DNA of 63,900 bases, taken from contig CM106586.1 in the NCBI GenBank assembly GCA_048013815.1, positions 1,984,001 through 2,047,900 of the forward strand, in the 5' to 3' direction. This document shows positions 12,901 to 63,899 of this stretch, piece by piece. A program made the translations under genes and the position numbers. The notes beneath the pieces are model-generated. The model was not told the origin of the DNA. It was given only the letters and a program-made list of their open reading frames with translations, and did not search any database. The DNA is from Setoptus koraiensis. Its lineage: Eukaryota > Animalia > Arthropoda. Position 1 is the first letter of the stretch. Each line of letters begins with the position of its first letter.

Positions 12901-14419
12901 AAGACTGGATCGAGCTTGAATGGTTTGTCGTCACCAGCAAACATCGAAACATCGGCTGATTTCGCTCAAGCGTCGTCCCTGGGCCCCTCGACAGTCGTAA
13001 CTCACCTCAATAACATTCCAAGAGAAGCATCTAATGAATTGCAGTTTGTCGACCAGACCGCTGGTCAACAAGATATGTCAGGTTTATTCCACAGGGATTC
13101 TGGATTGCCGTACAATCATTACGCGAATGCCCCGAGTAATCAATTCCTGATGTCTTCTCAAATGATTGAGTCTGATGGTAACTATTTGCCGGCTATCACT
13201 CCGTCCTCACAGACTACTCCAGTTGAGGGGCCATCAATTTATTATAGTAATGATAGGAATGGCCCTGAACCGAGTGCAGCGATGAGCAGCTCTGTCAGTT
13301 CAGACGTCAATCTTTCACCATTATCCTCCCAGCTGGATGTTGCTTCATCTACTTCCGGCAGCACAGGACCCACAGTGGTTAGTGCACCATTGAGTTCAGG
13401 CCCTCTCGAGCGCTTTGATATTCCAAATTTGAATAGTCTATCCACTGTCGAACAAATGTCAATAGATAGGTACTCAAATTCAATGGGGAGTTTGGCTTCG
13501 ATGCGTGATGAAGAAGACCTCTCTATTTCCAACAACTACGCCCTTAGTGGCTCTATGTTGCCATACCGAGAGACTTCGAGCGATGCACAAGCATCCTTTG
13601 ATACTTCGGTTCAAATTCCATCCGATATAGATCACAGATCTGACTCTAACAACAATGCACTGGCTTCGAGTGATCAATTTATGAAACATATTCTAACGAC
13701 TAATGAAGTGAATGAAGAAGATAATTTTATTAGTAATCAGGCCAGTTCTGCAATAAACAATGATCGGGTGTCATTAGAAGAGCTCTCATCTCAGTCTATA
13801 AAGCAACAAGCACCAACACTAGCTTCTGTCACTAACACTAACCCCATGTTTCAATTAATGTCGCCTTTGAGCGACAATAACGATAGAGAAAAGATTACTC
13901 TTAACATTAACAATGACAACAACAACAATTATAACTTAGATAATTATGTTGTGCAAGAAACTAAAAATCACTACTACACACCTGCTATATCAACGGTTGT
14001 AAATGGCATTACAAATGATAATGCCCTTACAACTGCAACCACCACTACTGCAACTACCATAACTACCAAACAACAACCTCACCTAAAAAACCAAAAACTA
14101 CAACAACAACAACGACAAATGCTTCGTGATAAAACCCAAATCGATACCATACATCAATCATCATTAAACCAAAACCGACTACCAACCATGACGTCCGACG
14201 GCACATCCCTCATTCATGATGATCGCCTCTCACTATCGTCGGCACGACCTAATCTCGCCTTGCCATTGAGTCCTATTGAATTGACTTTGTTACAAACATT
14301 GTCGCTTAATAACAACAATGCCGTTCAAAATTCAATGCTACCCACCATTGACAACAACAACAACAACAACTACCGTTACTTTGATCAACAACAACAATCC
14401 GACTTACGCTCCGACACCG

Positions 14420-14468
<49 letters not shown>

Positions 14469-14852
14469 CTACAACTACAACTACAACTACAACTACAATA
14501 TCGCCACCGACCAACAATCGTTGCTATCGAACAACTACAACTATCAAACTTCCCTCTCCCCATCACTCGCTGCTACCCAAAATACTCTCGACACCCCAAA
14601 CATCCTCAACACTGAATCCTCTCCGTTTTCCGTCGCTAATCCCGCGATAAATAATCCCATAAATGAACTCTACTCGCAATCCGCTCTTTCCGACGCCCAT
14701 TCCGCTCTATACTCAACTCCCGAAAATCCTCTGAACATCCCCGACGATCCCGATCCCTTGTACTCTGCAATCGGCAATGAACGGCAATATCGCATAACGC
14801 AACGTGATCAACAAATGCTCGACGCAACGACTCAACTACAACTACAACAACT

Positions 14853-14883
<31 letters not shown>

Positions 14884-17800
14884 CCACTACTACTACTACC
14901 AACGCCGCTATCTAAACTGACTTCAACTTTGACGACTGCAACTGCGACGACACCGACATCACTTCCGACTTCTGCTGCATCCACCTCATCGCAACAACGT
15001 CAAACATCATCATCTATTGACAACCAATTTACACAACAACAATACCAACCAAACTATTTGACGACAACAACAAACGACGCTCTCGTTGCTGACGACTTCA
15101 CAACGGCAAACGGCGCTCAATTTATGCCACAACAACAACAACAACAATCATTTGATCGACTGCTTTACCCAATCAACAATGACTTGTCAACCGCCGCCTC
15201 AACCTCATCGTTGTCATCAATTGACAATCAACAATTATTTGAAACTATTGAAACAGGCTTGAAGAACAGACTCGCCGGTGGCGCTAGTTCGGCCGCCGCC
15301 TCATCTGCAGCTGGCGGCGGTGCGGCCTCATCAGCGGCTAGTTCCAGCTCGTCAGCGGGCGGTTCCGGTTTGGGAGCCGGTCCGCTTGGAGCGGGACTGG
15401 GACTGCTGGGCTCGTTGTCAAGCCCGTTCACTGGCGCACAACAATTGGGAGCGGCTGTTGGTTCGGCAAACGGTGCCACTAACCTGGGCTCGAAACTAAC
15501 AGGCTCAAACATAGGCAATGCTGTCGCTAGTACCTCGGGTGCCTTGACGGGTTCCGTGGGCAATGCGCTCAGTTCGGTGGGCGGAAATCTGGGCACTTTA
15601 ACCGATTTGTTCGTGAGCACTCCGTTGAGCGTCATCAATTCGGTGCCGGGCGCCGTGGCAGACTTTGGCCGTCTTATATCTCGACCGGTGGCCAGTGCCA
15701 TCGGAACGGCCTCGTCCGCGCTCACCAGTGGCACGCCCTCGTACGCGTCGCAACTATCTCACAGCGAATTGTCACAAGGTGCCCTGGCCAATGTCGCAAG
15801 TAGAAGCCTAGTCGAGCCTATAACCACTCTGGGCGGACTACAAACCGGCGGCTCGGGTGCCGCTTCGTCGGCATCGTCGGCCTCGTCCTCTTCGGCGGGC
15901 GGAGGCGCGGCGTCATCATCGGCGGCCTCGGCGTCATCAGGATCCTCGGGCGGCGGCGGCGGCCTGGGCATCATTGGCGGCCTGACCGGCCTGGGTGGTG
16001 TTGGCGGACTATTGACGGGCGGAGCGGGAATTGGCGGTGGCCAGACCAAACAGACCAGTACCACTACAACATCAACAAACAACGGGCTACTGGGTGGCTC
16101 TCAGCAAACAACTAGAACAACCACACAACAATCGTCTGACAACGGCGGCGGATTGGGTATAATGGGCGGCTACGGCGGCGTAGGAGGAGGCTCGTCGTCC
16201 GCCTCATCGGCCACATCGTCATCATCTGGATCATCGGGTAGTCCGCTTTTGGGCGCCGGAGTGGGTGGCGGCTCGTCATCATCAGCGGCATCGTCGTCAG
16301 CAGCGTCAGGCAACAGTGGCGGTATAGGACTTGGTCTGGGCTTGGGCGGATACAGACCAGGCTTCGGGCCGGGACCCGTGATCTACGGGGGCGGCCTCAG
16401 GGGTGGCGCCTCATCGTCTTCGGCAGCAGCGTCATCATCGTCAGCAAGCGGCGGCTCGGGTGTACTGGGCGGCTTAGGCGGCGGTTCATCAGCTAGTTCG
16501 GCGGCATCGTCGTCTTCGAGCGGCGGCATTGGCGGTGTCGGCCTTGGGGGCAGATATTTAGGCGGTGGCTACGGAATGGGCGTGGGATCAGTATTAAATG
16601 AGGGGAGTGCAGTCGGGCAGCTAGCAATGATGGACGGTAGAGCCGCAATGTATAATAATCTTGGTCGTCGTCACTACTATCTAGATGCAACAGGCGGATA
16701 CGGAGGATTGGCACAACAACAATCGGCGGCGGCCTCGTCGTCGTCGGCGTCGTCGGCGTCGTCAGCTGCGGGCGGCGGCCTAGGCCTGGGCGGGGGCGCC
16801 AGCTCGGCAGCCTCAACAACATCCACTTCTACAACATCAGTGGGCGGTGGCGGACTCGTAGCGGGCCGCCCGATAGGCTACCCGTTGGTGGGCGGCGGCG
16901 GCTTAACGAGCGGTCTGGCCAGTGGTCTGGCGGGAGCGGGCGCTCTCACCGGTTCGCTTATAAACTCTGCTGGCGCTGCGGCCTCAACGGCCGCGGCCGC
17001 ATCAACGGCAACGGCGAGTAACGTGGCGACCGGCGGTCTCGTGGGTGCAGGCGGTGTGATGAACAACGTCGGACTAATGGCTTCCGGTGCGGCTGGTGCA
17101 TTGAGTGGTGGATTGGGATTGAATGGAGCGGCTGGTTTATATGGTGGTGGTTTAGGAGGATACGGACCAGGAATGGGCGGATACGGACCGGGAGCAATGG
17201 GACTGGCGGCGGGTTCGGCGCTTGGCGCGCGCGGATACGGGCCTTTTGCTGGGGTTGGTTCAATGATTAATCCTCTTAAATCTGATCTAAATGAACAATA
17301 TTTGTCACGAGAGGCACAGTTAGCGGGCAATTATGCCAGTCAGGCAAACATTAAAGCTAGCATCAATAACAACAGAGCGGCCATAACGGGTTATGTCGGT
17401 GACAATTTGCGCGCCCACGTGTCCGATGTCAAGGCGGCCGAGGCAAATGCCCTGGCGGACGTGGCACAATCGAACGCTCTGGTAGAGCAAACAGCAAACA
17501 CGTTCAAGCAAGTGGGTCAATTAGCCGGCCAGGCAACAATAGCGGGCGCGGCGGCGGGTCTGGCGGGCGACGTGAGTCGCATTGGCGCGGCAACAGGCAG
17601 CGGACCGGCAACCATACCCGCAACATTGTCCGCAATGGGTCCCGGTATGATAGCGGGCGACGCGCTTGCAAACAATGCTCAAGATTACGCAATAGCTGGC
17701 AAAGAAATGGAACGTAGCACCGCCAACAATGTGGCCAATGCCGCCCTGGCCGGAAACGCCTACAGGGCGGCCAAGCTTGCGTCGGCCCGGGACAGTGTCA

Positions 17801-19080
17801 ATGTTGCGGGTACCATAAACAATGCGGCCACTATTAGCGACGCGGCTATTGCAACTCACAATGCGGCCAGCAAGGCAGAGGACGCTCTATTGGGCAGCGA
17901 GGTGGCCATGGACACTGCGGGCACTGTCTTTGATTCGGATGGCGCCTTCATACCCGACACCAAATACTCGCTGTTGCGTTCATTGCCCTACGGCAAGCTC
18001 ACCATGAGAAACATCTTGCCGCGCCCCTTGTCCGTGCCCAGTGCCCTGTTGCCCGACACATGGCTGAATGGTCGGCCCATAAACTATGGTCTGTCGCCCA
18101 TAAACAACTACGGCGGCTTGTACGGTTTCGGCAATCAATTCACAGCCGGCAGCGGTCTCAATCCCGGAGCGCCTCTTCCGCCCGGCCCGTGGTCTCCCGA
18201 GCTGCTGGGCTATCCGGCGGTGGGCGCCTTCTGGGGCGCAAATCCAATTTTGGGCGCACCCGGATTGGGCAGCGGACTGGGCACAAGTTTGGGCGCGGGT
18301 TTGGGAGCCGGTTTGCCGTTTTATGGTGCCGGTCCCGAGTCGACACTATTGGGGGCGGCACAATTGGCCTCATTTCCATTGGCCGCGGCACAACAATTGG
18401 CCTCTAGCGACCTGCAGGCACTGGGCTCTGTGTCGGCCAGCTTGGGCGGCCTAGTTCACCAGGGCGGAAATGGCATGCTATTGACGAGCACAACAACAGG
18501 CTCATCGATTATACCCGCCAGCGATACCGCCACCACATACCCGATTGGCTCAGCTTTAGTTATTGAACCCCGTGATTCATATTTTCAAGATTATCTAGAC
18601 GAGGCTACATCTCGTAAAAATTATAATGATGACGGCGACAATAATTCAATGAGAAACATAAATGCAGCTCGCCTAGGTAGCTCTCTGCCGGCGCCTTATT
18701 ATTATTCGCCACCACCATCCTATCCAATTATTAATCCAACACCATTCATTCAATCACCACTCATCCAACCAATAGCGTCGTTAGGTTCTGCTGCCACATC
18801 ATCAACAGCTGAATCGGCTAGCAGCGCCTCTAGTAGCGCAAGTAGCAGCTCAACAACATCCACTACCGCATCAACAAGCTCCAATGCCGGCGCTGGACTC
18901 TTAGGTGGTGTGTCGCCTTTCGGCGCAATGGGCCCCGCTATAGGTGGCGCTGGTGCTAGCACCACAAGCACAACCACCACTACGTCTAGTTCGGCCGGTG
19001 GAGCAGGTGGCGCTGGTGGAGCAAGTTCAGCGGCTAGTTCAGCTAGTTCGGCCAGTTCAGCCGGTTCAAGCATGGTCTAG
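5134..19080 (+). CDS. Main/C-terminal part of the giant protein: Tyr/Pro repeat region, Asn/Gln/Thr linker, Gly/Ala/Ser fibroin-like region and Ala-rich/Pro-Gly C-terminal region
   Basis: A 4,643-aa stop-free ORF (ATG 5149). The frame opens at 5134 with YPEYP-MFHAYG, the same motif seen in the upstream ORF, and it shares near-identical nucleotide blocks with that ORF. AATAAA follows at 19274. Confidence 0.85.
6472..11522 (+). repeat. Intragenic duplication: 6472..6851 repeated at 11143..11522
   Basis: Collinear, near-identical 380-bp blocks at a constant offset of 4671. Confidence 0.9.
14422..14499 (+). repeat. Coding microsatellite (AAC)16 followed by (TACAAC)5, giving N16-(YN)5
   Basis: Read directly from the sequence. 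Confidence 0.95.
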
Positions 19081-30857: not shown

Positions 30858-32607
30858 TTGGTGAGTTGCAATTCGCAAGTGAGTTGCAGATAACGGTCAG
30901 TTTATAACGGACGGCGGCAGCAACTTTTCAGCTTGGCTTTGGTCACTGCGCACACAACATAACGGTATATCTGTGGGCAAGCAGCACACATTGTCGTTTG
31001 GCATATTTGGACAAGACAAAGATTGTTTCAGGATCACACCAGCAACAACTCTGCCTGGCAACGGGCTGCAGATGCACTAGGACAAGAGAAGAAAAAGTAT
31101 ACTAAATAGCACTGTTGTTGCCGTTGTTGTTGCCGTTGTTGCCGTTGTTGTTGCCGTTGTTGCCGTTGTTGTTGGTGTTGGTGTGTGCGAGCGTCCAATG
31201 TAATCAAATTGCAGACATGGTTGCGTTGGTTGGTAGTTGCGGCGACTGTTGCGCAACTTGCTCACTTTTCATCTGCATAAACAACATACAAACAAGAGGC
31301 AACATTACAGTGTAGAAACTGGTGGCCAACTTCATTTCAGTTTCATTCATTCATCAGCACACAACAACATCAATACACGACAACAACAACATCAGCAACA
31401 GCAACATCAGCAACATCAGCAACAACAACATCAGCAACAACAACAACCAAACGAATCAGTATAACCAATATCATGGTTGTGCAATAAAAGGCCGCCCCAT
31501 GCTATCGGCTGCAAACACACACACACACACACACACAACAGTTAGAGGCTGCAGTTGATCTTTGAATATTTGCAGTTGTAGTTGCCGCTACATCACATCA
31601 CATTACGTCATATCGCATGGCATGGCATGGCATGGCATGGGCTTAGGATAGCTGACAGGGGATAGCGTCGGATAAAATCGCATCGGATGGCATGTTATTG
31701 GCTAGTCGCATCATATCACATTGAATGGTGGTGGTCGTGGTCGGCCTACGTACACTAACAAACCAAACGTGTTTCGTGCCGTGTAGTGCAGTATTAAAAC
31801 ATTCATGTTATTTATGCGTTGCTTGTTGGCCATCACAACTATCCAATACTGCTCATATACATGTAGTGAACATTCTGCAAACCATGTTGTTCGTTAGCGA
31901 CGCTCTTTAACGTCATTACGCAATCAAAGCGCGCCATCCGTGCCAATGCAAACCAATCCAATTGAACCAATCCAATTCAACTCAATCCAATCAAATGCAA
32001 TCATCCAAACAAACGGCTATCATGCTCGTCACGCTCAACACAAGCCAGCCACAACTTGTAAATAAGCCGGCCGTCCAAGACATTAAGAGTTGTTGTTGGT
32101 GATGCCGCCGGTGGTAGCCGCTACTACTACTGCCACCACTGCCACCACTGGCACCACTGGCACCACTACTACTACCACTACTACTACCACCACTACTACT
32201 GATACTACACTAGCCACCTTTACTCACAAGCAGCAGCAGCAACAAAAACATTATGTAATATCTCTCGCAAACAGTGGCATCATATTAATCTCAACGAGTG
32301 CACACAAATTCAGCTAGCCGAGGCATAAACATTTTTGCGATAGTCGGTTCACCATAAACATTCACAGATAATCATCTATTTGCACTTGGCGTCACTTGCC
32401 AGTATCTGGCAGCAATTGGCGTGTATGGGTCGCCAAGCGTCGGCATCATTTAGCGAGCCAATACACAAAATCACAGTCATGATCTGCTAACAGTATGCAG
32501 TCTTGCTAAACTTAAACAGTCTTGTTAGATTAATGATTGAAGGCACACACACACACACACACGCACTCATGACCAATAAATAACAACAACAACAAGTGTC
32601 TGTCCAA

Positions 32608-33100
32608 ATGCCAAAAGAGAGCCTCTCGTTGGCGCCCGGTTCGCTGGGCTCCTCGGCCACGCCAACTTCATCGCCGGCCTCATCAACCAATGGCCTCAGC
32701 GAGCGCCCCTATTTCTCATCATGCCAAACTAGCAGCATAGATAGTTCATCAAATCGGGATTGTTACCATTTTACAATATTATCATCCAACTCGACAAGTT
32801 CGCAACAAATCGCGGCAGCCTTACATCAGCAACAACTGCACCAGCAACAACAACAACAACAACAGAGACCAGTGAATCATATTTATGATAATTTAAAGCT
32901 AACATCGGACAATGATCCCCGTCAGTTGTCTTCGTGTGAGCTTAGAAAGTGCTGTGAGAGATTGTTTCGTCCGCAACATGACAATAACCAACATGCAAAG
33001 ATAACACAGAAAACAACAAGTAAATCACTGGATAAAAGTTGCATCACTTATCAAGAATTATTATCTAGCCCGTATGTGGACAACAATAACACTAATCCTG

Positions 33101-33139
<39 letters not shown>

Positions 33140-36100
33140 TTGCTACCACTAATAATAAGAATAATGATAATAATAATAATGGCAAGACGTGTTTGCATAA
33201 AAATATTAATGATAGCTGTGATTGCCGCATGTGCTGTTATTTAACTAATGATAATTCATTGTGCCAGCACAACCATTTCGTAGTTGATGATGGTGGTAGG
33301 TCGTCATCATCATTTAGAGAAGTAACTGACCAATTATCAAACGGTCGTCATCATCAACAACTCCAACAAGGCCAGCTGATTTTGCTCGACAATACATGCA
33401 ACGAGCGTCATCGGCAAGACGATGATGATACCGCCAGCGAAGACACTGAACTCAAGTTTATCTGGAGCCGCAAATCAAATTGGGCTCATTTGAATTCAAA
33501 TTGCAGCAAGCACTCGAGCCAGCAAGATTCAATTAAAATCAACGAAGCTCAACGAATTGATTCGGGGGCCAATAAAGAAACGATCAATTCTAGTATTTGC
33601 AGCCATGAAACGGACGATCAAGAAAAAGAAGAACAAGACGACGACGACGGTGACGATGACGACGACGATCAATACGAGGATTTGGAAGTGACATCAATCA
33701 CAGAAAATAATAATCTTTATAAATATGATGACAGTGTTAGCAGCATTAGTCATGGCAGTGATTCGTCAATAATATCATTATCAGTATCGTCATCTTTATT
33801 ATCTCAAGTGATAAATTTAAGCCATCAACCGTTAAATGAATCTCTATTGGCCAGACGAAGGAGAAGAAGAATCAGACAGAAGCGATCAAATGATAGCAAT
33901 TATGCTATCACTGGTCTAACCATAATTGACGGTTGCGATGGCGCTAGTGGTCAAGACACAAACAACAGTCATCATTTAGGTGGCCAATCAAATTTGATAG
34001 AGTCTAGCAATTTATCGAGTCCGTCCATGTCGACGTGTGTTCATAATTGTCGACAATTGATACACGCAGAAACAACAACTAATAATTGTCTACGTGTCGG
34101 CCCAAATGATTGCAATAAATCATCGGATAAGTTACTATCTCATGCTCAACGATTATCATCTTATAATAAATTTTTCAACGAAAACAACACCATGCAAGAG
34201 ACAGTATTGCAGCAGCCACTGTATCCAGGCAGCATCACTGATCATAATAACAATAATAGTTATTCACACAACTATAATGGTTGTGAACTACAACAACAAC
34301 AAACACAATCGGAGAAGCTTCTTCAAGCCAGAGAAATATCCAACTGTATAAAGGCCAACCACTTACAGCCAATGGTAAAGAAACAGCCGAATCAGTTATG
34401 TAATAGCAACCATTATCATCATCATCAATCATCATTGTATGATAACGATTGGTCACCAATGAGCAACAACACAAGTAGTAGTGGCAAATATTTTGATCAA
34501 AATAACAACAACACTAGCAACAATGCAAGCAACATTAAAAATAATAGCAAACTAATTCAAATTAATCATCAATCAACAGTGATACTGCCGTTGATTATTA
34601 AACAAAAAAATCTAGATCGCTCAATTTCTACAAACGCTTCGTCTAGCGATGATCTTGATTATAATAATAGCCAATTGGTGGCAGACAACAATAATAAGAA
34701 TAATGTTAATCTGGCAAGTGATTCAACATCGTCCGAAACCAAGCAACAAAATAAACACATTGATAACACCAACGATAGCAACAATGGTCAACCCACTAGT
34801 CACAACAGCACCAACAGTAACACCAACGCAAACGCCAACGCCAACGAGCATATATTTCGGCTTGACCCTTGTTCGTTGCCCCTCAAAGACGACGCCTCAA
34901 TGGTTGAGGCCTATGCAAATGTTGTCGATGTTGTTGGAATGTCGTCTAGCGCCACAACGAGCGCCATAAATACACCTGTCGAAGCGCCACTGTGGAGCCG
35001 AACCAACAGATTTCAGCAGCAGCACCAGCACCAGCACCAGCAGCAACAACAACAACAACAACAACAACAACAGCAGTATAGAAATCGTAACATAAGTGGC
35101 GTTATGCAACAACAAGTGAGGCCAAGTCCTAGGCCGCGCAGTTCCATATCGCGCAACTCAAACAAGACTGGTCAAAATGATTCATTGGATGGTGCCAATA
35201 GAGCCGAGAGTGAGCCATACAAACTGCAAAAACCGGAGCTAAATGAATCCAGCCAAAATGAGCCTATTTATGATATTCCCGCCAGAGAGGAGACCAGTCC
35301 CGTTGATGGTGACGGGCAAACTATTCAGTATGCTAATATATTGTTGGACGATATTGTTGGCGCAAGCACGGTAAAACGGTCGACCTCCGACAAAGATCCT
35401 CTGCCACCCGACCAAAAGTATCCCTACGAATCGCCCAGTAGTAATAGTCACACAATACCGCGTCCAGTTGCCACACTAAAGTTACACGATGAAAGTAAAA
35501 TTGGGCAAAATCAACATTCTAGTCGTTTGACATTGAGCAACAATGATGATAATAAGACAAGCATGAAATCGTCTAGTGATAATTACAAATTAAAACTTGA
35601 TACTTGTGCTGATCACAGCAGAAAAACAAGGAAAAACAGAACACAAAATACTAATTACGCGAAATTACGTGATCGATTAGAGCCAGTGCAAAATGGACAA
35701 CGGTCAAGCAAAAGCCACAGGTGCCATTGTGATTTGTGTCAGTACAAGAAAAATCTAAAATTATATCTTAGGCAGCTGGATTTTAATCATGATCACAACA
35801 GTAAAAAAGAAACAGCAACCACTGACAATAGTGTGTCCCTTTATAGTAGATTAGCTATGGCGGGAAGTGATCATGACGAACGTGGCCAACATTATCACAA
35901 CCATCAACATCAACATCATCAACAACAACAGCAACAACAACATGGGCTCGTCGCAAAGCGACAAACCGACCAACAGCGTCGCCCGACTACCCGAGCGAAA
36001 CGTTCATTCTTTTCATCAAACAATAACAATCTGCGCTCTCCCTTATCCGGTGCTAAATTAGGCAATTCAGCAACAGCAAAACATAACAAGAAGAATTGTC

Positions 36101-38382
36101 GTATAATTGTTGATGGTGCAACAGTTGTTGATAGAGCTTATTATTACCATCATGATAATCATCATAAAGCTTCAACAAAAAGTGGCAACAATAATGGTCA
36201 AAAACTAATTAGAAACATTAAAAAGAATAACCGGAAGCGAGATTATACAACAACTAGCACCACTGTGACCAGTGTCAGTAGTAGTTGTGGTAGTAGTGTA
36301 TGTAACAGCTGTTGTTGTTATAGTGACGACGAGGGTGACACAAGTGATGTTGCCAATTGTCATTGTTGTAGCTGTTCTCTGACATCATTATCGGCGTCAT
36401 TGTCGTCAGTGTTATCTTCGCGTTCGTTCGAGTCTCGCCGGCATCATCGCAGACATAGACGTCACCGTCTTCAGCAACACCGACCAACTATAACAACAAC
36501 AAATGGAAGAAGCAGAAGAACTGATGAACAAAGAGCACAGTTATTACAACAAACAAGCACAAAAAATAATTACGTCATAAAAGATTCACAGAAATTTCAC
36601 AAAGGTTACATAGCATTGACAGGTGCTGTTAAGGCGCCATCGCCATTGTCAAAGAAAACCCTGTTGCTAATGAAGAAAAAGAGAAAATTAACTAATAGTA
36701 GTAATAATAATAGTGGTTATAATGGAGTTGGCGAGATTAACAAGTTACCAATAATGGATAGAATGCTGTTGTTGCGTCATGAGCATCATCGTGCGTCAAA
36801 TGTTAGTGAACACGCAATGAATGATGATCAACTAAAACCACTTATGATGACCACTGACATAAGTAGCAACGATAGTTTTAGTGAATATGACAACAACAAT
36901 TATCATCACCTAAAACACATTGCCACCGCTAATGCCACTGGCGCAACTAATGGCAAAATGGCGGCTAAATCAACAACTAATGGCCAACAGCCGGGAGCAA
37001 ATTATGTTTCTGACGACCAAGGTAATTTGGTTGTTGTTGTCGCGTCTAGTGTTGCAAACGAGAATGTAAAACGAAAAGCAACTTTAGTCAAGACAACCAC
37101 CACCACCACCACCACCGCTAACAAGTCTAAAACTAACAACACTAATGATTTACATCACGATCTACCGATAGAACGGGTCAACGATAGGTTGCGGCAACGC
37201 AACAATAATTATCTTAATTGTAGTAATAAAGTATTGTCTATTGTTAGTTCTGATGCATATGATGGTATTAGAAGAGCTAATCAGGGTAAAAGATGCAACG
37301 CAATAATAAATAAACTAAAACAAACATCTAAAGTGCCAACAATATTGCAAAGACACGACAACAATGACGAACAACAACAAGAGACAAACAGCATCATAAC
37401 AGATGATGATGATGATGATGATAACAATTATGATGAAGATATTTTAGTCAACACCAATAAAGATCTACATAATGACACAACAACCGATGGACATGATTCC
37501 ATGAGACCATTGAAAATTTATTCGCCAAAGAGTTTTTCCAATACCAATCAAAGACGTCATCATCTTTTGTTAGCATCATCACCAATGATTTTCGATCGAT
37601 CAACATCAATTCGGCAGCAACAACAAAATCAGATTAATAGATCGCATTCAAGACGACATAGAATAGGTCACAACAACATCGATAATGCAACAACAAAAAC
37701 ACATAGTGCGAACCGTTTGAGATTACGCAATCGACTAATTAGAGTAGGCGCCAATGGAAGTGTCTACTCAACAGGTGGAAGCATTGGTGCTCTGTCTAGA
37801 AATAAAAATCGAAGAGTAAGAAGACTGAAAAAAATGATGCTGATTAACGGCTCCTCACATCATAACGCCATTCAACAAAATGTATCAAATCATTGTAATA
37901 ATATGGCCACTAATAATGGAGCCAATCACGCAATTGCAAATCGCAAATATCATAAAAGAAAACTGTCCAGGAGACGACGTGATCTCGCAAGAAACATTCA
38001 CCTGCATGATTTGCATAATGATCAGCAAGTGTCACTGAAAGAACGTTTGCCAACAAACAATGCGATTGTCGAGACAACAGTCAACGGACAAACGACGGCA
38101 ACAAATGTTACAAACAACGTTAGATCAATTGGTAATATTAAATGTCGTTGCAGTCATTGTTGTTTGCTAGAGAAAATGATACAACTTGATAAAACGAATA
38201 GGTTGATAACAAAATTGACTAAACAACAACAACGCGCTTTGCAGTCGACCGGAAAATATGGCCGAAATGGTTTGTTGGACGATGAGCATCCATTTTTGAA
38301 ACAACCGACTAGTCAAATGAGAATAATCACACAAATGTTAGCCAATTGTTGTCCATCAGAGGCCAGACGAATATGCTGTTGA
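32608..38382 (+). CDS. Uncharacterised 1,924-aa low-complexity (N/Q/T/S/H/D-rich) protein, probably intrinsically disordered
   Basis: A 5.8-kb stop-free frame with first ATG at 32608 and an in-frame TAA upstream at 32581. No recognisable folded domain. The C-terminus is ...MLANCCPSEARRICC. Confidence 0.8.
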
Positions 38383-55112: not shown

Positions 55113-56375
55113 TTAATGACAATCGAGATATGGATAACGAACCGCCAAGCATTGATGATACGTAACCATAAGAAAACGTAAATGCCCAAACCGGCATAAA
55201 CGTAGACGGTAACAACAATCAAGGCATAGGCAATGTCATTGAAGCGGCTAGTCAGCGATTAAATCAAGATGATTTAACACGCAAATGTAATGAAATACGA
55301 GAACGAAATCGTAGATGTAAATCAAAGAAAGTAAGAGACAGACAAGAAAGGGGCCATAAACATGCCCGCTTCTGGGACAAAAGATTGCAACAGTGTAAGA
55401 ACAAGTTCATAACTGTTAAGATCAAGTACAAGAAAGAACTTCGGCAATACCGAAGGGAGTTGTTGAAATCCCAGGAGAAGGATGCCCTACAAGAGAGTTA
55501 CATGGTACAAAGAGCTGACGAAGTCAGACGTGCAGAATGTATATACAAACGGGAACTCGAAGAGACCCGTACGTGAAAATTCAGAGATAAATGCGACATT
55601 AGAGAAAACTCTAACGCATTTAATCAGGTATATAAAATTGTATTTAACAAATACAATAGAGAGACAGCTCTGACTAATATCATTCATCCGACTAAAGGTA
55701 TGCTTACCAAGCCGGATGAAATCACGCAACATATCATGGAAACTAGTTTTGCTGATGACGTCATAGAAGAAGATACACCTGAGCAAAGCGAACGTAGGAA
55801 ACGCGTCAACGATCTTGACGAGATTGAATACATTCGCTGGCAAGATGATATAGACAGACCATTAGGCCTGGTGACGTTAAACAATCCAGTCATACATAAT
55901 GTAGACGGAAGCCAATATGAACATATTAATGATCTAGGAGACCCTCTTGGACCACCAACACTTGAAGAAGTTACAAGTGCCATAATGAGATCTTCTAGTG
56001 GCAAAGCCCCTGGTCAAGATGGCATCATGACTGAAATTGTCAAGTATCAAAAAGAGACTATCGCTCCCATCATGAGAGTGATAATCGAGAAGAGCTTAAT
56101 CATTGGTTACTTCCCCACACAATGGAAGAGAGCCAATGTAGTCATGATACCGAAGGCTAACAAAAGCCAGCAATATGCAAATGGTTGGAGGCCAATATGT
56201 TTGCTAAACGTATTGGCAAAAATCATGGATAAAATCATGATTGAAAAGATCCTTGACCATGTTGCCAAGTCAGGTAACCTGAATCCCAATCAGTACGGAT
56301 TTTCACCTAGAAAGTCCACTGTACACGCTGTATGGGATGCAGAGCAGACAATTATCAGGAACCGAGATAAACACC
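55113..56375 (+). pseudogene. Degenerate non-LTR retrotransposon (LINE, R1-like by inference) ORF2 fragment: linker plus N-terminal RT, truncated at both ends
   Basis: KAPGQDG, FPTQWKRANVVMIPK, WRPICLLNVLAKIMDK and QYGF..RKST motifs. In-frame stops are present (e.g. TGA at 55574), and homology ends before the RT catalytic motifs at ~56375. Confidence 0.9.
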
Positions 56376-58746
56376 CAAGGGAATGATCCCATTTATACAT
56401 CCGGGTGGTACAGCGCAGCCATAAATGGTCCTAATAGCCATAATGAAGGAAACCCGACGGGCCAGATACTCATCATAGAGTTCGGTCCCAATGTATCCTT
56501 GGGAGACGCGATCGCGCTTTCTCCGGTAAGGCTCGGGCATGCTTTTGTCACCGTCGACACGGACGGGACGGCGACCAGGGTCGGCTTTAGCTTGGCTTGC
56601 GGTGGCCCATATGTGGCCGGCGTGAGCACGGGTGTTGTAAAAGGCAACCCAGTTTTGCCCAACGACTATTATATAATCCAAGTTGGCATTCTTAAATGGG
56701 TGCACTGGTGCAGGTTCGTGGTCCCGGGCTATGGGAGGTGTCCAGTCAGAGGAGCAAACGCCGAACCGGGCCAAGCTGTCTCCTTTGAGGGTACGACAAC
56801 GTGTCCCGAGGTCATAATAGTGAATAAGGGCCTGATACATGAGGATCCTGTGGGTCCTGGAACCATTGAAAGGGAATCGGGATATCTCAAGAGGCATGTT
56901 TTGGATAGGAAAAACAAGATAATGGGGACGATCTTGGTGTCCTACGGGCTCCACCATGCGGCGCAAAGGCTGATTGAGAGATCGATAGCCGAACCAGTCA
57001 AGCTTTGCTGGCGGCTGGCATATCCTAAGGTCAGTTATAACCTGACGTGTAAGCAGAAAACAGCGTGGGGCACAGCCTGGAAAATAGACGGAAAGCTGAC
57101 CGTCGATAACTATGGGGTCCGTTTTGCGAGGCTCAGGGTAAGTATAGGGATCCGAGAGAAAAATTCGAGCGGCCGGTCTGGCGTAGGTTGGATGACAAGT
57201 CAGAGAGGTAGAACTCTGAGTAGTAACCGGGACAGAAAGAGCGACCTAGAAAACATAGGTAAAGGAAGAGATCGTGTAAAAGATTTATTATTATTGATGT
57301 TGCGGAGATTGGTCCGGCAGGATACTGCGGACAGCTCTTTCACGCTCGACACAATTCTGGCAGTCTGCCTCATAGGAGGTAAGATGGTTGCAGCCGAATC
57401 CTATGGTGTTGAACAATTGACTCACAGTAGAGGAGGTCTCCGAAGTATTGAGAATGTCACGCGGAGTGAGGGGGCAGTGTCGGCCCGGGTTACAGCAGAC
57501 GTCTCGGCCGGATGAGGCTCGGATGTGGCGTCTCTGACAGGTGTGTTTTCGTCATTTTCGGTGACTTGCGGTTCGTCGGCAACGGCGGACGGCGTGACTG
57601 GTGATTCGGTAGCAGTAATAGGTGGATTGGCCGATGGGTCCTCAGCAGTGATAGGCTGTGGTGCATCAGCATCGGTGCGTGGCCCGGTGGTCGGCTGATC
57701 GGTGATAGCGGGCTGAATAGATGGTGGTGGAGGAATGACCTCTGCCCCGCTGATAATAGGCGAATATGTGATTGCAGGGAGGGTGAAAGCCTGAGTAATA
57801 GGGGGAGGACGAGGGGTCTCGTTGTCGGAGTCGGGATATTCGGAAGCCCGGTTGGACTCGATGGTAGTGTTAATAGATGGGCTAGTTGGGTCGGTGAAGA
57901 ATCGACGCGGCACGCCGGCGGAACTAGGGGTTGGAGGAGCCGTGGTTACAGGGGAAGTCTCGGAAGGGGAAGGCCGGGCCGGGGTACTGGTGAGGTTGGC
58001 GGAAGGATTAGGGTTAGGAGGTGCCTCAATAGCAAGAGGGGTGATGTTGACAGTAGTGCGAGATGTGGGGGTGCCGGCAGGAGGAGGGCGCTCGGAGATT
58101 ACAGCAGAATGGACAGGCGGCTGGTTATGAGGAGGACGGGTGTCCTCGGACCTGGGTCGTCGATGATCGGGTGGTGGCAAGGAAGGATGCCCGCTGGAGG
58201 GAGAGAAAGCGGCCTCGGGGTGAGTACAGCGCCAACGGAAGGCCGCAAGCATCCTGGCGAAGTTGTCTGGATCATATCCAGGGGCAAAGTTGAAGCGGGA
58301 TTGCGGCGGATAAATGAATCTGTCGGGAGTATTGTACGCTGGAAAATTCGGGTGAGGGGGCAGGAGCCTTCGCAGCAGCAAAGAGACTCTGGCTTGATGC
58401 CAGGTCCGGAGTTGGGTTGGGGCGCACTGCCCGGTGTAGAAGTACCAGAGTACTTGTACGAACCCGCTGAGAGGGTCCACTGCGGTACATCCATAGAGCT
58501 CGTCTCGGCGGCGTTTGATGAGCTGTTTGAACCTAGCCTGTGCTTCAAGGGCAATTTTGCCGAAGATGTTGGCACGCTCAAGGTAGGCGACCTTGTCCCG
58601 AACCAACAGGTCGGGTCCCTGATTGACGCTGGAAGGAGGGCTAACCCAGGGCCCTATGGGGGGTTCATTCCTATAGCGCCGGCTTCTGGGATGAAGGTCG
58701 AGGTGAATATCGGCTTGATGAAGCTGCGGCAGCCATACCTACATAC
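56355..58746 (-). other. Unidentified GC-rich coding segment truncated at both ends: ORF A (open 58738..57422), probable intron 57425..57246, ORF B (open 57245..~56375)
   Basis: Both frames are open well upstream of the listed TTG starts. There is a GTGAGT donor at 57425 and a polypyrimidine tract plus TAG acceptor at 57246. No recognisable family. Confidence 0.6.
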
Positions 58747-60644
58747 ACAAGTTATACTGATTGTACCAGTATAAGAGCGCTTAATTTTTCCAGTGAACAA
58801 TCTTAAAGGTTTGGACAGTTTATTAAGAAATGATAAGTGCTAGCTGTCTCTAGAAAGTTTTTCAAGAATTTATCCTGGTGAGAACAGTTTCGAAAATTGT
58901 ACATAATGTATGGGCACATGTGATCAGAAATCACATGTATTGAATGAGCTAACATGATCCAGAATTGCCTATAGCGCCAATACTTGAAACAGAAAATCGA
59001 TAAAACTTGCAAAGATCGTGTATGGCACAGTGCTTGCTGTCTCTAGAAAGTTTCGAGAATTTATCCTGGTGAGAACAGTTTCAAAAATAGCACATAATGT
59101 AATACTTGCACGAAATGTTTCGAGCAACATGCACAACACATACACGCAGTATCATCAAAACGGATAGGTGGGAACATGTTCAGAAATTGATGACTATACA
59201 TGAAATCCGTAATCCGAAATTTTTCTCTGTCTCGAAAAAGACCTATTGATGGCTGATCATACTTGCACAGAATGTTGCGAGTAACATGTAAAACACACAC
59301 ACGAAGTATTATCAAAACGGATAGGTGGGAACATGTTCAGAAATCGATGACTATACATGACATCCGTCATCCGAAATTTCTCTATGTCTCGAAAACGACC
59401 AATTGATTTCTGATCATACATGCACAGAATGTAGCGAGCAACATGTACAACACACACACGCAGTATCATCAAAACGGATAGGTGGGAACATGTTCAAATA
59501 TCACGATATTCACATGTGATCAGAAATCAGATGTATTGAATGAGCTTACATGATCTAGAATTGCCTATAGCGCCAATACTAGAAACAGAAAATTGATAAG
59601 ACTTGCACAGATCGTGTATGGCACAGTGCTTGCTGTCTCTAGAAAGTTTCAAGAATTTATCCTGGTGAGAACAGTTTCGAAAATCGCACATAATGTATGG
59701 GCACATGTGATCAGAAATCACATGTATTGAATGAGCTAACATGATCCAGAATTGCCTATAGCGCCAATACTAGAAACAGAAAATTGATAAGACTTGCACA
59801 GATCGTGTATGGCACAGTGCTTGCTGTCTCTAGAAAGTTTCAAGAATTTATCCTGGTGAGAACAGTTTCGAAAATCGCACATAATGTAGAGACACATGTG
59901 CCACAATATGGCCTATAGCGCCAATACTAGAAACAGAAAATTGATAAGACTTGCACAGATCGTGTATAGCATCGATCCACCTCCTCACAATACATTAACC
60001 TCTGCATGAGCCCGAGACTTAAAATTCAATCCACCTCCCTGAAATGTGTGTTTGGGAGGTGGACGAACCTTCGAGTCTCACACTTGTATGTAGGTTGTTG
60101 CATGCTCAGGAGGTGAACTTATTGTTTAAGCTGAAGCTAGTCCACCTCCCAAGCATGAGTCACCCCACGCTATTCGGAGTAGCTAAACCTATCTCGTTTT
60201 AGCCCCGGTCCACCTCCTCACTATACATGAGCCCGAGACTCAAAATTCAATCCACCTCCTTAGTAAATGTGTGTTTGGGAGGTGGACGAATTTTCGAGTC
60301 TTAAGCTTGAGTGTACCTCCCACCTCCCAAGCACATTTCAACCTACACACTCACTTGGCACTAATTATACTAGAGCTAATGTATGCAAACACACAGCGCG
60401 TGACTCTCAAGATCAAAACTGTGAATATCCACAAATAAATCGGTACGTGAATATTCACTGGCATACAAAGTCTGAGTATTCACAAGCACACAGCGCGTGA
60501 ATCACCATAGCACAATTGGTGAATATCCTGTGAGATGCACGAATTTAGTATCCACCATCATACCGTGCGTGGATATTCATGCGTGATTTATAGGATCCAA
60601 CAACACTACATCATAAGCCCTTAATTAAAATTAAGCGCTAAAAA
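58747..60644 (-). mobile_element. Helentron-associated non-autonomous element (HINE, DINE-1-like), copy B
   Basis: Same termini as copy A: stem-loop at 58752-58774, subTIRs at 58776-58788 and 60627-60639, inverted partner at 60616-60626. 60201-60640 is nearly identical to 54670-55108, and the central tandem array is expanded. Confidence 0.8.
58838..59960. repeat. Tandem array of 191-bp units (plus ~155-bp units) inside HINE copy B
   Basis: The anchor GTGCT(A/T)GCTGTCTCTAG occurs at 58838/59029 and 59626/59817 (period 191). A second unit containing ATCAAAACGGATAGGTGGGAACATGTTC occurs three times between 59130 and 59500. Confidence 0.9.
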
Positions 60645-60704
60645 TAGCACTGATTTGTTCTGTCACGTGAATAAACGTAGTCATAATAACCACCCCAATA
60701 GCAA

Positions 60705-60729
60705 CTTAATTAAAATTAAGCGCTAAAAA
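60705..60729 (-). mobile_element. Isolated extra HINE 5' terminus
   Basis: CTTAATTAAAATTAAGCGCTAAAAA repeats the copy B 5' end 85 bp further along. Confidence 0.6.
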
Positions 60730-60991
60730 GTTTCACGGCCCTGCCGAAGGGCAAAACCGAACGCCGTCTGCCGACGAAGACTACCCAGACAACGACCAAT
60801 TAAACGAGGAATTCGAATTGATCGACATGGGCCCGGACGATGAGGTCGAGCGTCAGGGCGGTACAACAGATCCAGTGGCCGAACAACAACACGCAGCAGC
60901 TAGCGAATTGGCCGAACGGCAACGCAAAGCAGCCGGCGAAGCGACCGAACGGCAACGCGAAGCAGCCGGCGAAGCGGCCGAACAAACACAC

Positions 60992-61194
60992 TGTTGGAAT
61001 ATGAACTGTACTGAGTACGTACAGTAACACATGAAGTACCATTTATTACAAGCTATACATTATATATATATTGATTAGTGTATTGGTATACACTTTTGTT
61101 TGTACATTGCTCATACATTGCTTATACATTGCTTATACATTGCTTATTCGCTGTTTACTGCACTTGCGCATACCGACACTACTGTTTTCTAACA
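60992..61194 (-). mobile_element. 3' LTR (203 bp) of an env-bearing copia element
   Basis: On the minus strand it reads TGTTAG...CCAACA, preceded by the polypurine tract CTGAGTGGGAG (61205-61195). It contains AATAAA (61047-61042) and an 11-bp tandem repeat. Confidence 0.9.
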
Positions 61195-61215
61195 CTCCCA
61201 CTCAGGAGTGTCGGT

Positions 61216-63360
61216 CTAATTCTCATTATAGCTCTCATAAACCTTTGCTTTACCAAATGATCTCATTGATCTCGAGGCGAAGGATGGCTCTCTTGCGGCT
61301 CCTGCTTGAGATATAATGTCATTGATTGATCTCGGGTTATCATAGATTGCGTCTAACTCGATTAGGCTGTTGACATTGTCCACACGTTCCAGCTTATTTT
61401 TCTTTGCAGCATTGTAATAGCATACCATTCCAATGATTATACTTACCAATATTGCTGCTGCAAAAGCTGTCACTATGACAATCGTCCCTGTCATTTGGAA
61501 TGACACTGTTTTGATCTCCTCACCAGTTACTTTAGCTTTAATACTGTATCTAAAATTGACATGTGATCTGTCACTGCTAAGGATAATGCCACGCAGGATT
61601 GTATTTTTAGGTCGTAAATTAGCTAGTTCTTTGTAGCCTGACAACTCGCTGATTTCGTCTACTGCAAGCTGACCACGATTGCACTGATTCAGGATGGTCT
61701 TGTATGTCGCTACACCACCAAGAATCTCACTATACAAATCTAAGGATGCTAGGATTGCTCTTGGCATGCTGCTAGCAGCATCTTCAACTTCTTGTTGATG
61801 AGTTCTGCTGGTCTGACTTACTTCATTTATCTTACTGATGGTCTCATTTCTAAACTTTTCATTCTGTCTGAACAGTTTCTCCGTTTCTAGCTTAACCTCA
61901 GAGATGAGTTCCTTAGCAGCATCTTGATTAGGCAAAATTTCTTCCGACGACAGGAACTTACTAATGACAAAGTTAGTTGCTCCAACTCCAATAGATTTCG
62001 CTATGTCAGTTCCTATGCCTCTTTTTTCTAAATTATGAGCACATCTTCCAATATTGTCTAGTAACGGAGTGAATTTGGTGTGGTATTGTCTGTTACATTC
62101 TTTCAAGAGTTGAGCTTCGACAGTATCACAAAAGCAGCTACATATACCATGCGTTGTGAAGTGAACCGGATGATAATCGGTGTTGTTCGACAACACATTG
62201 CATGGGTTATTGATGTAGACTGTCAACTCAAACACATCGGCGGTTACTCCCACTGTTCCCGCTACAATTAATGATGTTAGTAATAATAGGCTCTTGACTC
62301 CCATCATGTCTCTTAAATTCACAAACTGATTTCTAGCTAACGGTTTGGTTAATATATCCGCTATTTGTCGTGATGTTTCAATATACTTGACTTTGACTTT
62401 CTGTTCTTCTATGGCTACACGAATAAACATATATTTAACATCAATAAGTTTGATCTTTGTATGTATCTGTTGATTAACTATTAGTTTTATCGCACTTTGA
62501 CTATCTAAATATAGATTGATAGGATTTGTCATTTCTCGACCAAGCTCACTTAATAACTGTCTAACCCAAATGAGATTACTACAAGCTAAGCTAGCAGCGA
62601 TGAATTCAGCATTTGTGGTTGACGTTGCCGTTGTCGTTTGCTTTGTTGAACGCCAAACTACTGGTGCTCCATTGAGCATGACAATTATACCACTAGTTGA
62701 CTTCTTCGTATCTAAGTCTCCGGCGAAGTCGGAGTCAGAGTAGGATTCAAAGTGAAAGTTCTCACCCTTATTGTAATGCAATCCTATGTCTGATGTAGCT
62801 TTCAAATATCGGAAGATCCTCTTCACTCCCGCCCAGTGGGATGGCTTGACACAATCAGCATAGCTGGCTAATTTTGACACTGCATAGCTTATGTCTGGTC
62901 TTGTGCCATTGCTTACATAAATGAGGGATCCAATTGCTTCTTTATATGGAACTATAACTTCTTTCTCCACGTGATCTAAGGACAAACCATTTTTGCAATA
63001 CTTTTGGTTGTGCTCCATAGGAGTGGATGCATCCTTAGCGTTGCTTAACTCAAATCTTGCGATCATCTTTCTTATGTAGTAGCGTTGATTGACAATCATG
63101 TCTCGATTTTTTCTGTCTCGATAGATTTCCAATCCAACGAAACAACTCGGATCCATAATGGACACCTCAAATTTCGTCTTGAGGAAGTTGGTTATTTTAT
63201 CCAGCAGTTGGATATTATTGCTACACACTAATCCGTCATCTACGTACAAGACTAATATAAGGGTGATCTTGTCTCTATCATCCTTTCTTACCATGATGCA
63301 ATTATCTTTGTACAACGGCTGCAGCTCAAATGTCTTCAGAAAAGAAACAAACGTACAGTT
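61216..63360 (-). CDS. Ty1/copia pol C-terminal part (RT, RNase H) fused in-frame to an env-like membrane glycoprotein; 5' truncated
   Basis: RT LYVDDGL and PYKEAIGSL.Y....RPDI; RNase H YSDSDFAGD....STSG and ADILTKPL. These are followed without a stop by a hydrophobic signal-like segment, a Cys-rich segment, EKR|GIG, a heptad region and a TM helix. Confidence 0.92.
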   Translation of the reverse strand, partial: NCTFVSFLKTFELQPLYKDNCIMVRKDDRDKITLILVLYVDDGLVCSNNIQLLDKITNFLKTKFEVSIMDPSCFVGLEIYRDRKNRDMIVNQRYYIRKMIARFELSNAKDASTPMEHNQKYCKNGLSLDHVEKEVIVPYKEAIGSLIYVSNGTRPDISYAVSKLASYADCVKPSHWAGVKRIFRYLKATSDIGLHYNKGENFHFESYSDSDFAGDLDTKKSTSGIIVMLNGAPVVWRSTKQTTTATSTTNAEFIAASLACSNLIWVRQLLSELGREMTNPINLYLDSQSAIKLIVNQQIHTKIKLIDVKYMFIRVAIEEQKVKVKYIETSRQIADILTKPLARNQFVNLRDMMGVKSLLLLTSLIVAGTVGVTADVFELTVYINNPCNVLSNNTDYHPVHFTTHGICSCFCDTVEAQLLKECNRQYHTKFTPLLDNIGRCAHNLEKRGIGTDIAKSIGVGATNFVISKFLSSEEILPNQDAAKELISEVKLETEKLFRQNEKFRNETISKINEVSQTSRTHQQEVEDAASSMPRAILASLDLYSEILGGVATYKTILNQCNRGQLAVDEISELSGYKELANLRPKNTILRGIILSSDRSHVNFRYSIKAKVTGEEIKTVSFQMTGTIVIVTAFAAAILVSIIIGMVCYYNAAKKNKLERVDNVNSLIELDAIYDNPRSINDIISQAGAAREPSFASRSMRSFGKAKVYESYNEN

Positions 63361-63361
63361 C

Positions 63362-63426
63362 ACTTCATACGTTACTGAGCTGTTATACACATTCAGTGTT
63401 TACTGGGTACAGTTCATATTCCAACA
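63362..63426 (+). mobile_element. Inverted LTR 3'-end (U5) fragment closing the copia insertion
   Basis: Ends in GTACAGTTCATATTCCAACA, identical to the last 20 nt of the 3' LTR but in the opposite orientation. It is followed by CACAC, which matches CACAC at 60987-60991. Confidence 0.85.
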
Positions 63427-63593
63427 CACACGAACACACAAACCAATGAGCAATTGAAGACAATGCCTCAAGCGGACCAATTAACGCTATCGGGGCAACT
63501 CTGGACAATTTGGCGATAAATGCGAGAAATCCGAACAAACAGTCGACGAAACTGATGATCAGATTGCTAACGCCGACACGATAAACAGAGCAA

Positions 63594-63899
63594 TCAGGCC
63601 AACGTACTCATATATACTTTAAATCCTATCTTACTTAGCATCATTGAGTGGGTCCTGGGTGTGAGGGCCATGGTTAAAATATCGGCTTTCTGGTCTTCTG
63701 ATTTGATATACTCTAGTCTGAATTCTCCTTTGTTAAATCTCTCTCTCACGTAGTGTACCTTGAGATCGATGTGCTTTGTTTTGCCGTGGAACTCAGGGTT
63801 TTTAATGAGCCGGAGAGCCGATTGGTTATCTATAAATAGTGTTGGTTGTCTGGTTTTTAAACCAAGTTCTCTAAACAGTGAGTTTAACCACGTAAGTTC
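63594..63899 (-). mobile_element. Second Ty1/copia element: RNase H C-terminus, running off the right edge
   Basis: Manual translation: ELTWLNSLFRELGLKTRQPTLFIDNQSALRLIKNPEFHGKTKHIDLKVHYVRE...DQKADILTMAL..., stop at 63596-63594. Confidence 0.92.

Follow-up and report, generated by a model that had tools for sequence, protein, structure and literature searches.

The truncated copia insertion and its open frame

The window, by which we mean the whole 63,900-nucleotide stretch of DNA that was analysed, carries a truncated copia insertion of 2435 bp on the minus strand (60992..63426), with a 26-nt inverted repeat at its ends. A polypurine tract (61195..61203, minus strand) is followed by a 203-bp 3' LTR of the form TG...CA (60992..61194, minus strand), which holds a TATA-like element at 61070 and AATAAA at 61047, and whose start is marked in sequencing runs X1, X2 and X3 by a contig with another flank behind 61195. 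On its 5' side the copy is cut off inside the reverse transcriptase (RT), so that gag, protease, integrase and the N-terminal part of RT are absent, as are the 5' direct LTR and the PBS. Since gag, protease and integrase are missing, this copy cannot move alone. The insertion begins with a terminal piece of about 80 bp (63346..63426) that resembles the reverse complement of the LTR 3' end, its first 26 nt being 92% complementary, and both ends of the insertion thus look like a right-hand LTR terminus. The terminal piece has a read depth of ~560-1100 against ~100, as for a multi-copy element end, and in the reads several different flanks lie behind 63426 and other interiors are attached to the same end. 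The inverted 5' end could mean that integrase took up an aberrant cDNA; alternatively, it belongs to a family of short inverted repeats that came from the LTR. A possible 5-bp duplication, GTGTG, flanks the insertion (63427-63431 and 60987-60991) and is suggestive only, because GTGTG is of low complexity. Over the element, depth is ~100-140 against 115-120 in adjoining unique sequence (X1, X2), which makes it near single copy. The 5' truncation, the absent 5' LTR repeat and the inverted LTR-end-like start at 63426 had been overlooked in an earlier sequence-only reading of this DNA.

Between these ends, minus strand 61216-63399 forms one reading frame of 727 aa, stop to stop, which spans the end of RT, RNase H and a long extension. 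It contains the C-terminal half of a copia RT (63013..63360, YVDD at 63246-63235; Pfam RVT_2, E 2e-11, profile positions 131-243 of 244) and a copia RNase H (62296..62750) recognised from the frame and its sequence, which ends in ADILTK..MMGV with no stop. At a conserved RNase H motif, 62440-62457 (minus strand), the window copy differs from its relatives at one position, and the four acidic motifs are present. Past MMGV a further 359 codons are free of stops (61219-62295, minus strand), as the sequence-only reading had reported when it described RNase H running into some 360 codons; the two remaining minus-strand frames contain 28 and 39 stops across the extension, and the chance of a 359-codon open frame from the local base composition is ~1e-11. 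The motif positions named in that reading were all found in place. An assembly chimera at the RNase H-env junction was considered and rejected: Logan contigs from three studies (X1; X2, X3 and X4; X5), one of them possibly the window's source, cross the junction with at most 5 differences, and it is therefore not an assembly error. The X1 and X2 contigs cover 743 bp (61838-62580) and differ from the window at 1 and 0 sites, the X5 contig covers 62125-63121 with 5 differences (no stop among the 4 listed), and an X3 contig, from the same sample as X2, also bridges the junction. No RNA dataset was among the read sets listed as carrying the sequence.

The extension, hereafter mini-Env, has a class I layout (signal-like segment, basic site, fusion-peptide-like segment, single C-terminal transmembrane helix), as judged by hydropathy and motif only. 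On the minus strand it begins with an internal signal-peptide-like segment (62239..62292) that ends in V-T-A at a predicted signal peptidase site; a hydrophobic segment occupies this position in all six proteins compared, by hydropathy. There follows an F2-like subunit of 73 aa (62020..62238) comprising strand 1, a P-C pair, a long helix, three conserved Cys and an NNT sequon (62187-62179), and ending in LEKR (62031-62020), which is dibasic and not a strict furin site. The putative fusion peptide (61951..62019) bears the family motif G..TNF[IVL] and is moderately hydrophobic, with a mean KD of 0.74 over 22 residues against a family median of 1.07 (51 of 90 sequences scored). The model and alignment place broken HRA-like helices (model residues 105-154) and a central helix (158-185) with an invariant Cys at its end in 61678..61920, and an NET sequon lies at 61848-61840. 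A C-terminal beta-hairpin in the model (61540..61602) closes the match to F domain III described below, and about 19 residues separate it from the transmembrane (TM) helix (61420..61482, KD 2.8), behind which a cytoplasmic tail of 67 aa and the stop complete the frame (61216..61419). The sequons are not conserved in the family, and homolog P0002 has none.

A sister copy, of lower depth, differs from the window at 30 of 346 env sites and carries an indel of +6 nt in the tail. Synonymous changes make up 16 of the 22 differences listed, against a neutral mean of 7.5 ± 2.2 (P 0.0002); env is under purifying selection. Either side of a shared 743-bp stretch the sister copy is 84-91% identical to the window (61246-63031), and run X5 is sister-like at 61502-61851 and window-like at 61861-63121. 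Such mosaic haplotypes in the reads suggest recombination among copies.

Elsewhere in the window, an ordinary copia RNase H occurs a second time, represented by its end at 63594-63899 (minus strand), with a stop soon after the last motif and no env. Two adjoining frames at 56358-58738 (minus strand), of 296 aa and of 438 aa (Pro/Thr-rich), have no Pfam match and sit beside a non-LTR RT fragment (55577-56383, plus strand), and satellite-like repeats at 59500-60730 reach depths of tens to hundreds of thousands against ~120. Two plus-strand frames of 4648 and 1932 codons (5134-19077 and 32584-38379) have no Pfam match at E 0.1, and genes with few introns encode a RIM-binding-protein-like protein (SH3, fn3; Ig_RIMBP2 falls short of the cut-off), an hnRNP L-like protein and DHX37. 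From these genes the host is taken to be an animal, and they hint at a compact genome like that of a mite.

Env-like extensions in copia polyproteins

A full HMMER scan with the extension against 1.84e9 representatives returned 84 proteins at E<=1e-3, the best 38% identical. We examined 90 sequences, namely the window, 83 further HMMER matches, P0002, P0004, P0009 and three ORFs from metagenome loci. Four Cys are near-invariant, being present in 39 of 39, 50 of 50, 53 of 54 and 69 of 69 rows with a residue at the position. A strict R-x-K/R-R cleavage site occurs in 43 of 64 sequences, and P0133, a close relative of the window, has no dibasic site; a looser count of 60 of 64 comes from a permissive pattern without a control, and we place no weight on it. 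A Pfam scan of the window's extension gave no family above the cut-off, and in scans of 18 homologous proteins the extension matched an env or host family in none. The extension almost certainly belongs to a real protein family. The window copy is 5'-truncated and near single copy, as might suit an extension that is a relic decaying in this copy alone or that was taken from a membrane protein of the host. Such an origin is highly improbable given 84 homologs of constant architecture, the synonymous excess, best matches to viral fusion proteins, and Pfam scans that showed no host family. Host-gene capture was rejected; the extension is neither a host protein nor unique to this copy, the two outcomes that the sequence-only reading had named as fatal to its proposal alongside a stop after RNase H in full-length copies.

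Full-length relatives read through instead. A copia RNase H is in frame with env in 22 of the 90 sequences, window included (among these P0212 is of the long type described below and P0176 is too short to assign), and nine proteins, 1610-1797 aa long, run complete from Gag through PR, IN, RT and RH to Env, integrase preceding RVT_2 (six Pfam-scanned by us, three with precomputed Pfam). The copia order gag-PR-IN-RT-RH was found in all six full-length relatives scanned, and a search of longer proteins with an RT-to-env query gave at least three with 76-99% coverage among the 120 matches listed. The copia lineage with an in-frame Pol-Env that the earlier reading had proposed is supported. When metagenomes were scanned for an RNase H motif, without regard to env, 12 loci came up, two of which (L006, L008) have an in-frame mini-env in their DNA; two others appear to be chance matches, one stops after RNase H, and seven stay open for some tens of codons, a run-on in which no env match was found. 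In two of these seven loci (L003:1557-2042 and L011:2010-2606) the RNase H frame has a stop, and over 1 kb further down an env-like ORF of long type begins, with a weak profile match (E 0.3-0.46); this is possibly a separate-ORF arrangement or a different element. In L004 (oriented 1980-2381) a short ORF directly after a copia RNase H has a motif that resembles a chromodomain; chromodomains are typical of gypsy and not of copia.

Many env homologs are predicted as stand-alone proteins that start with Met and a signal, a point against the reading that we favour below. Env could function as we propose there and yet be translated mostly from an AUG of its own, on an RNA that is spliced or subgenomic, the join being incidental. 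Of the 22 fused sequences, 16 have a Met no more than 10 residues from where RNase H ends, against 39 of 88 in plain copia. In P0149 and L008 a polar linker precedes the Met and signal, and on a contig of 5396 bp P0133 is predicted by itself, starting at a Met. On the other hand, at least P0154 has no Met before its signal, P0153 and P0202 have one only inside it, and 22 diverse sequences keep the join open, some over linkers of ~40 residues; we hold this route to be somewhat unlikely.

The sequence-only reading had called for an RT phylogeny with env presence mapped. In an RT/RH tree (IQ-TREE, 38 of 128 rows) the window falls in a 14-row clade with support 100/100, in which 10 members have an in-frame mini-env and 4 stop after RNase H, so that read-through is not universal even in the window's own RT clade. 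The mini-env protein P0197 groups elsewhere (support 100/97), beside P0071, and the incomplete extension of P0071 starts like the long type, and a 128-row FastTree agrees with the smaller tree. The window's clade stands apart from the NCBI-named plant copia rows, in trees that hold neither named Sirevirus nor named animal copia references. The window's Pol is of copia type (RVT_2-type RT, copia RNase H) and not the Ty3/gypsy RT-RH-IN of errantiviruses. No relative was found in the viral contigs searched. An env-only word-index search of near-length proteins and an env alignment against longer proteins gave no match either, and both methods are weakly sensitive, since such homologs and longer proteins exist.

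Predicted fold and the short and long forms of Env

The ectodomain (250 residues), modelled with a 70-row alignment, reached a pLDDT of 87.9 and a pTM of 0.82; a single-sequence prediction had a pLDDT of 36.6, and a trimer prediction without alignment, at a score of 0.05, counts on neither side of the question of trimerisation. VIA-align placed model residues 1-231 on residues 47-282 of prefusion F (Z 6.9, rmsd 4.3 Å, 145 residues, 11% identity), and prefusion F outscored postfusion F (Z 6.9 against at most 4.8). Among 48,161 chains compared, the top 12 were all class I fusion proteins (paramyxovirus and pneumovirus F, foamy virus Env, coronavirus S2; Z up to 6.5), and the first unrelated chain came at Z 4.2. 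The tool advises caution at Z under 8, which covers all these values, and the case for F draws on their consistency with language-model features and anatomy. ESM features of the extension included Baculo_F, Fusion_gly and Gypsy env (0.87-0.90, weak by the tool's marks), and the Atlas recognition value was below its mark. The Foldseek comparison suggested in the earlier reading did put F proteins at the head of both lists, the 19 PDB rows before the first unrelated chain being all paramyxovirus or pneumovirus F and the BFVD list being led by F-type proteins, but it gave no match at E<=0.001 (best 0.13 in PDB and 0.054 in BFVD, TM ~0.3). Sequence searches of the PDB with A1 and A3 returned nothing significant. 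On this evidence mini-Env is very probably of F ancestry, and the class I fusion-like envelope that had been read from the sequence is supported by the model, at modest structural scores.

The range of F that is matched, residues ~47-285 over the alignments, corresponds to domain III (PIV5 F 42-278), with boundaries from the PIV5 F structure. As the match extends over the whole ectodomain, the prediction is that mini-Env consists of F domain III with the membrane anchor following almost at once, counterparts of F domains I, II and HRB being absent. The heptad/coiled-coil segment of the earlier reading is helical in the model, as the HRA and central helix of a domain III in its prefusion fold, and there is no HRB.

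The distance from the central-helix Cys to the TM helix has a median of 55 residues and a range of 43-85 in the 67 of 90 sequences that have both motif and TM. A long homolog, L006:3-1280 (plus strand), has 239 residues there and matches the env profile at a probability of 98% (E 8e-14); its long form combines the domain III match with about 185-190 more residues, a heptad-like helix and a TM. It lies on the strand opposite a mini-env copia on the same 4.4-kb contig, its own Pol being off the contig. The continuation of P0212 resembles this long form. P0022, a copia polyprotein with an in-frame extension of ~550 residues, has an Atlas Fusion_gly value of 0.90 with 205 shared features. It matches the long form in L006 over a short stretch (E 4e-5) and reaches E 2.5 only against the env profile; we consider it F-like because of its architecture, these features and the short match. 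No match was found between A1 and P0122, the C-terminal part of a P0022-type long env. In an env tree of 62 rows, weak as to the number of origins of the short form, the two long forms join at support 36. Our inference is that a full F-type env lost ~185 residues and so gave rise to the mini form. The sequence-only reading was right that this env is shorter than typical F proteins; its further suggestion of an internal deletion fails for the window copy, and a deletion specific to that copy was rejected, the short Cys-to-TM distance being common to 67 sequences. Shortness is a trait of the lineage and not damage, since the short spacing is family-wide and a long homolog has ~185 more residues.

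Proposed action of mini-Env and known systems

The reading we favour, with fair though limited confidence, is that a copia Gag-Pol frame extends into a paramyxovirus-F-like type I protein, made of domain III and an anchor, which likely serves as the envelope of the particle. In the translated polyprotein, the internal signal behind RNase H would direct Env to the ER, where signal peptidase would free it into the lumen, Pol remaining in the cytosol for processing by the element's protease. A Golgi convertase could then cleave the basic site into F2-like and F1-like chains, presumably held together by disulfides among the four invariant Cys, and a prefusion trimer of Env would coat budding particles or the cell surface. 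On triggering, HRA would extend and the fusion peptide insert. Gag, protease and integrase would have to reach the window copy from other members of its kind.

The last step is the most unusual one. HRB drives formation of the six-helix bundle in F, and with no HRB the canonical bundle cannot form, so that fusion would need the helix-hairpin segment behind the central helix to refold as a leash, or else Env has a role other than fusion. For fold-back, that leash would have to be the stretch of ~65 residues that leads from the central helix to the TM, unlike in paramyxovirus F. The other possibility is a mini-Env derived from F and still under selection that no longer fuses and acts in attachment, budding or membrane anchoring, or keeps out relatives whose Env is of full length. 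The missing domains I, II and HRB, the short linker to the TM, the absence of the basic site from some close relatives and the weak fusion peptide of the window all suit such a role; yet the basic site (strict in 43 of 64) and the hydrophobic segment (median KD 1.07, n=51) are kept across 20-40% identity, and this would be expected of a protein that still depends on cleavage to activate its insertion into membranes. We regard a non-fusion role as unlikely, and are slightly inclined to see mini-Env as a working fusogen. It likely allows copia elements to form enveloped particles, and it may be the smallest fusion machine of class I. Rather more tentatively, and with a little less than even confidence, we propose that small arthropods harbour an undescribed, diverse clade of Ty1/copia elements that are enveloped and infectious, with a 250-residue, domain-III-only fusogen lacking HRB and with long-Env relatives that keep the ancestral form.

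In the largely open-access literature covered, there was no report of an F-type env in an animal copia or of a domain-III-only F, and none of the former in work on copia in eriophyoid mites. Ty1/copia was the sole large LTR group there without an accepted virus-derived envelope, which mini-Env supplies; with a copia envelope in many intact polyproteins, each of the three LTR superfamilies has examples of envelope capture. The plant Sirevirus SIRE1, like mini-Env copia, has an extra ORF after pol in Ty1/copia. This env-like ORF is plant-specific and separate, and we know of no established homology between it and a viral fusogen. The portions consulted of PMC3118150 and of bioRxiv 10.64898/2026.08.24.746826 hold nothing on copia env, and the nature of plant copia envelopes is called unclear in the part consulted of PMC5408684.

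F-type ENV has been surveyed in errantiviruses, where all elements are classed as Ty3/gypsy and copia env-like ORFs are, in the sections consulted, mentioned briefly (Chary and Hayashi, eLife 2026, PMC13524379). As far as those sections go, errantivirus ENV and mini-Env are alike in sitting in an LTR retrotransposon and in having a signal peptide, furin site, fusion peptide and TM; the errantivirus ectodomain has four domains and mostly a C-terminal helix, whereas mini-Env has the equivalent of domain III only, and the carrier is Ty3/gypsy there and Ty1/copia with env in the Gag-Pol frame here (PMC13524379). A precedent for the in-frame arrangement is the BEL/Pao Atlas virus of Ancylostoma ceylanicum, described in the part consulted as a stop-free single Gag-Pol-Env polyprotein, which differs in its belpaovirus Pol and its class II, phlebovirus-like Gn/Gc (PMC9094657). 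Like mini-Env, the TelKA env of bdelloid rotifers is a paramyxovirus-like F taken up by an invertebrate LTR element, but it is full length (~600 aa), lies in ORF3 and is, in the portion consulted, not described as copia, whereas mini-Env is short and in the copia frame (PMC5408684). With paramyxovirus and pneumovirus F (PF00523; PDB 8v5a, 9dtu, 2b9b) mini-Env shares the predicted order of F2, basic site, fusion peptide, HRA, central helix and beta-hairpin, at ~10% identity and Z 5-7, and without a counterpart of domains I, II or HRB. A natural, selected F-like protein predicted to lack these parts opens to direct test how small a class I fusion core can be and whether it needs the six-helix bundle, and the long and short forms within one env family offer a natural comparison. 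What stands out here is copia as the carrier of env, together with the reduced F architecture.
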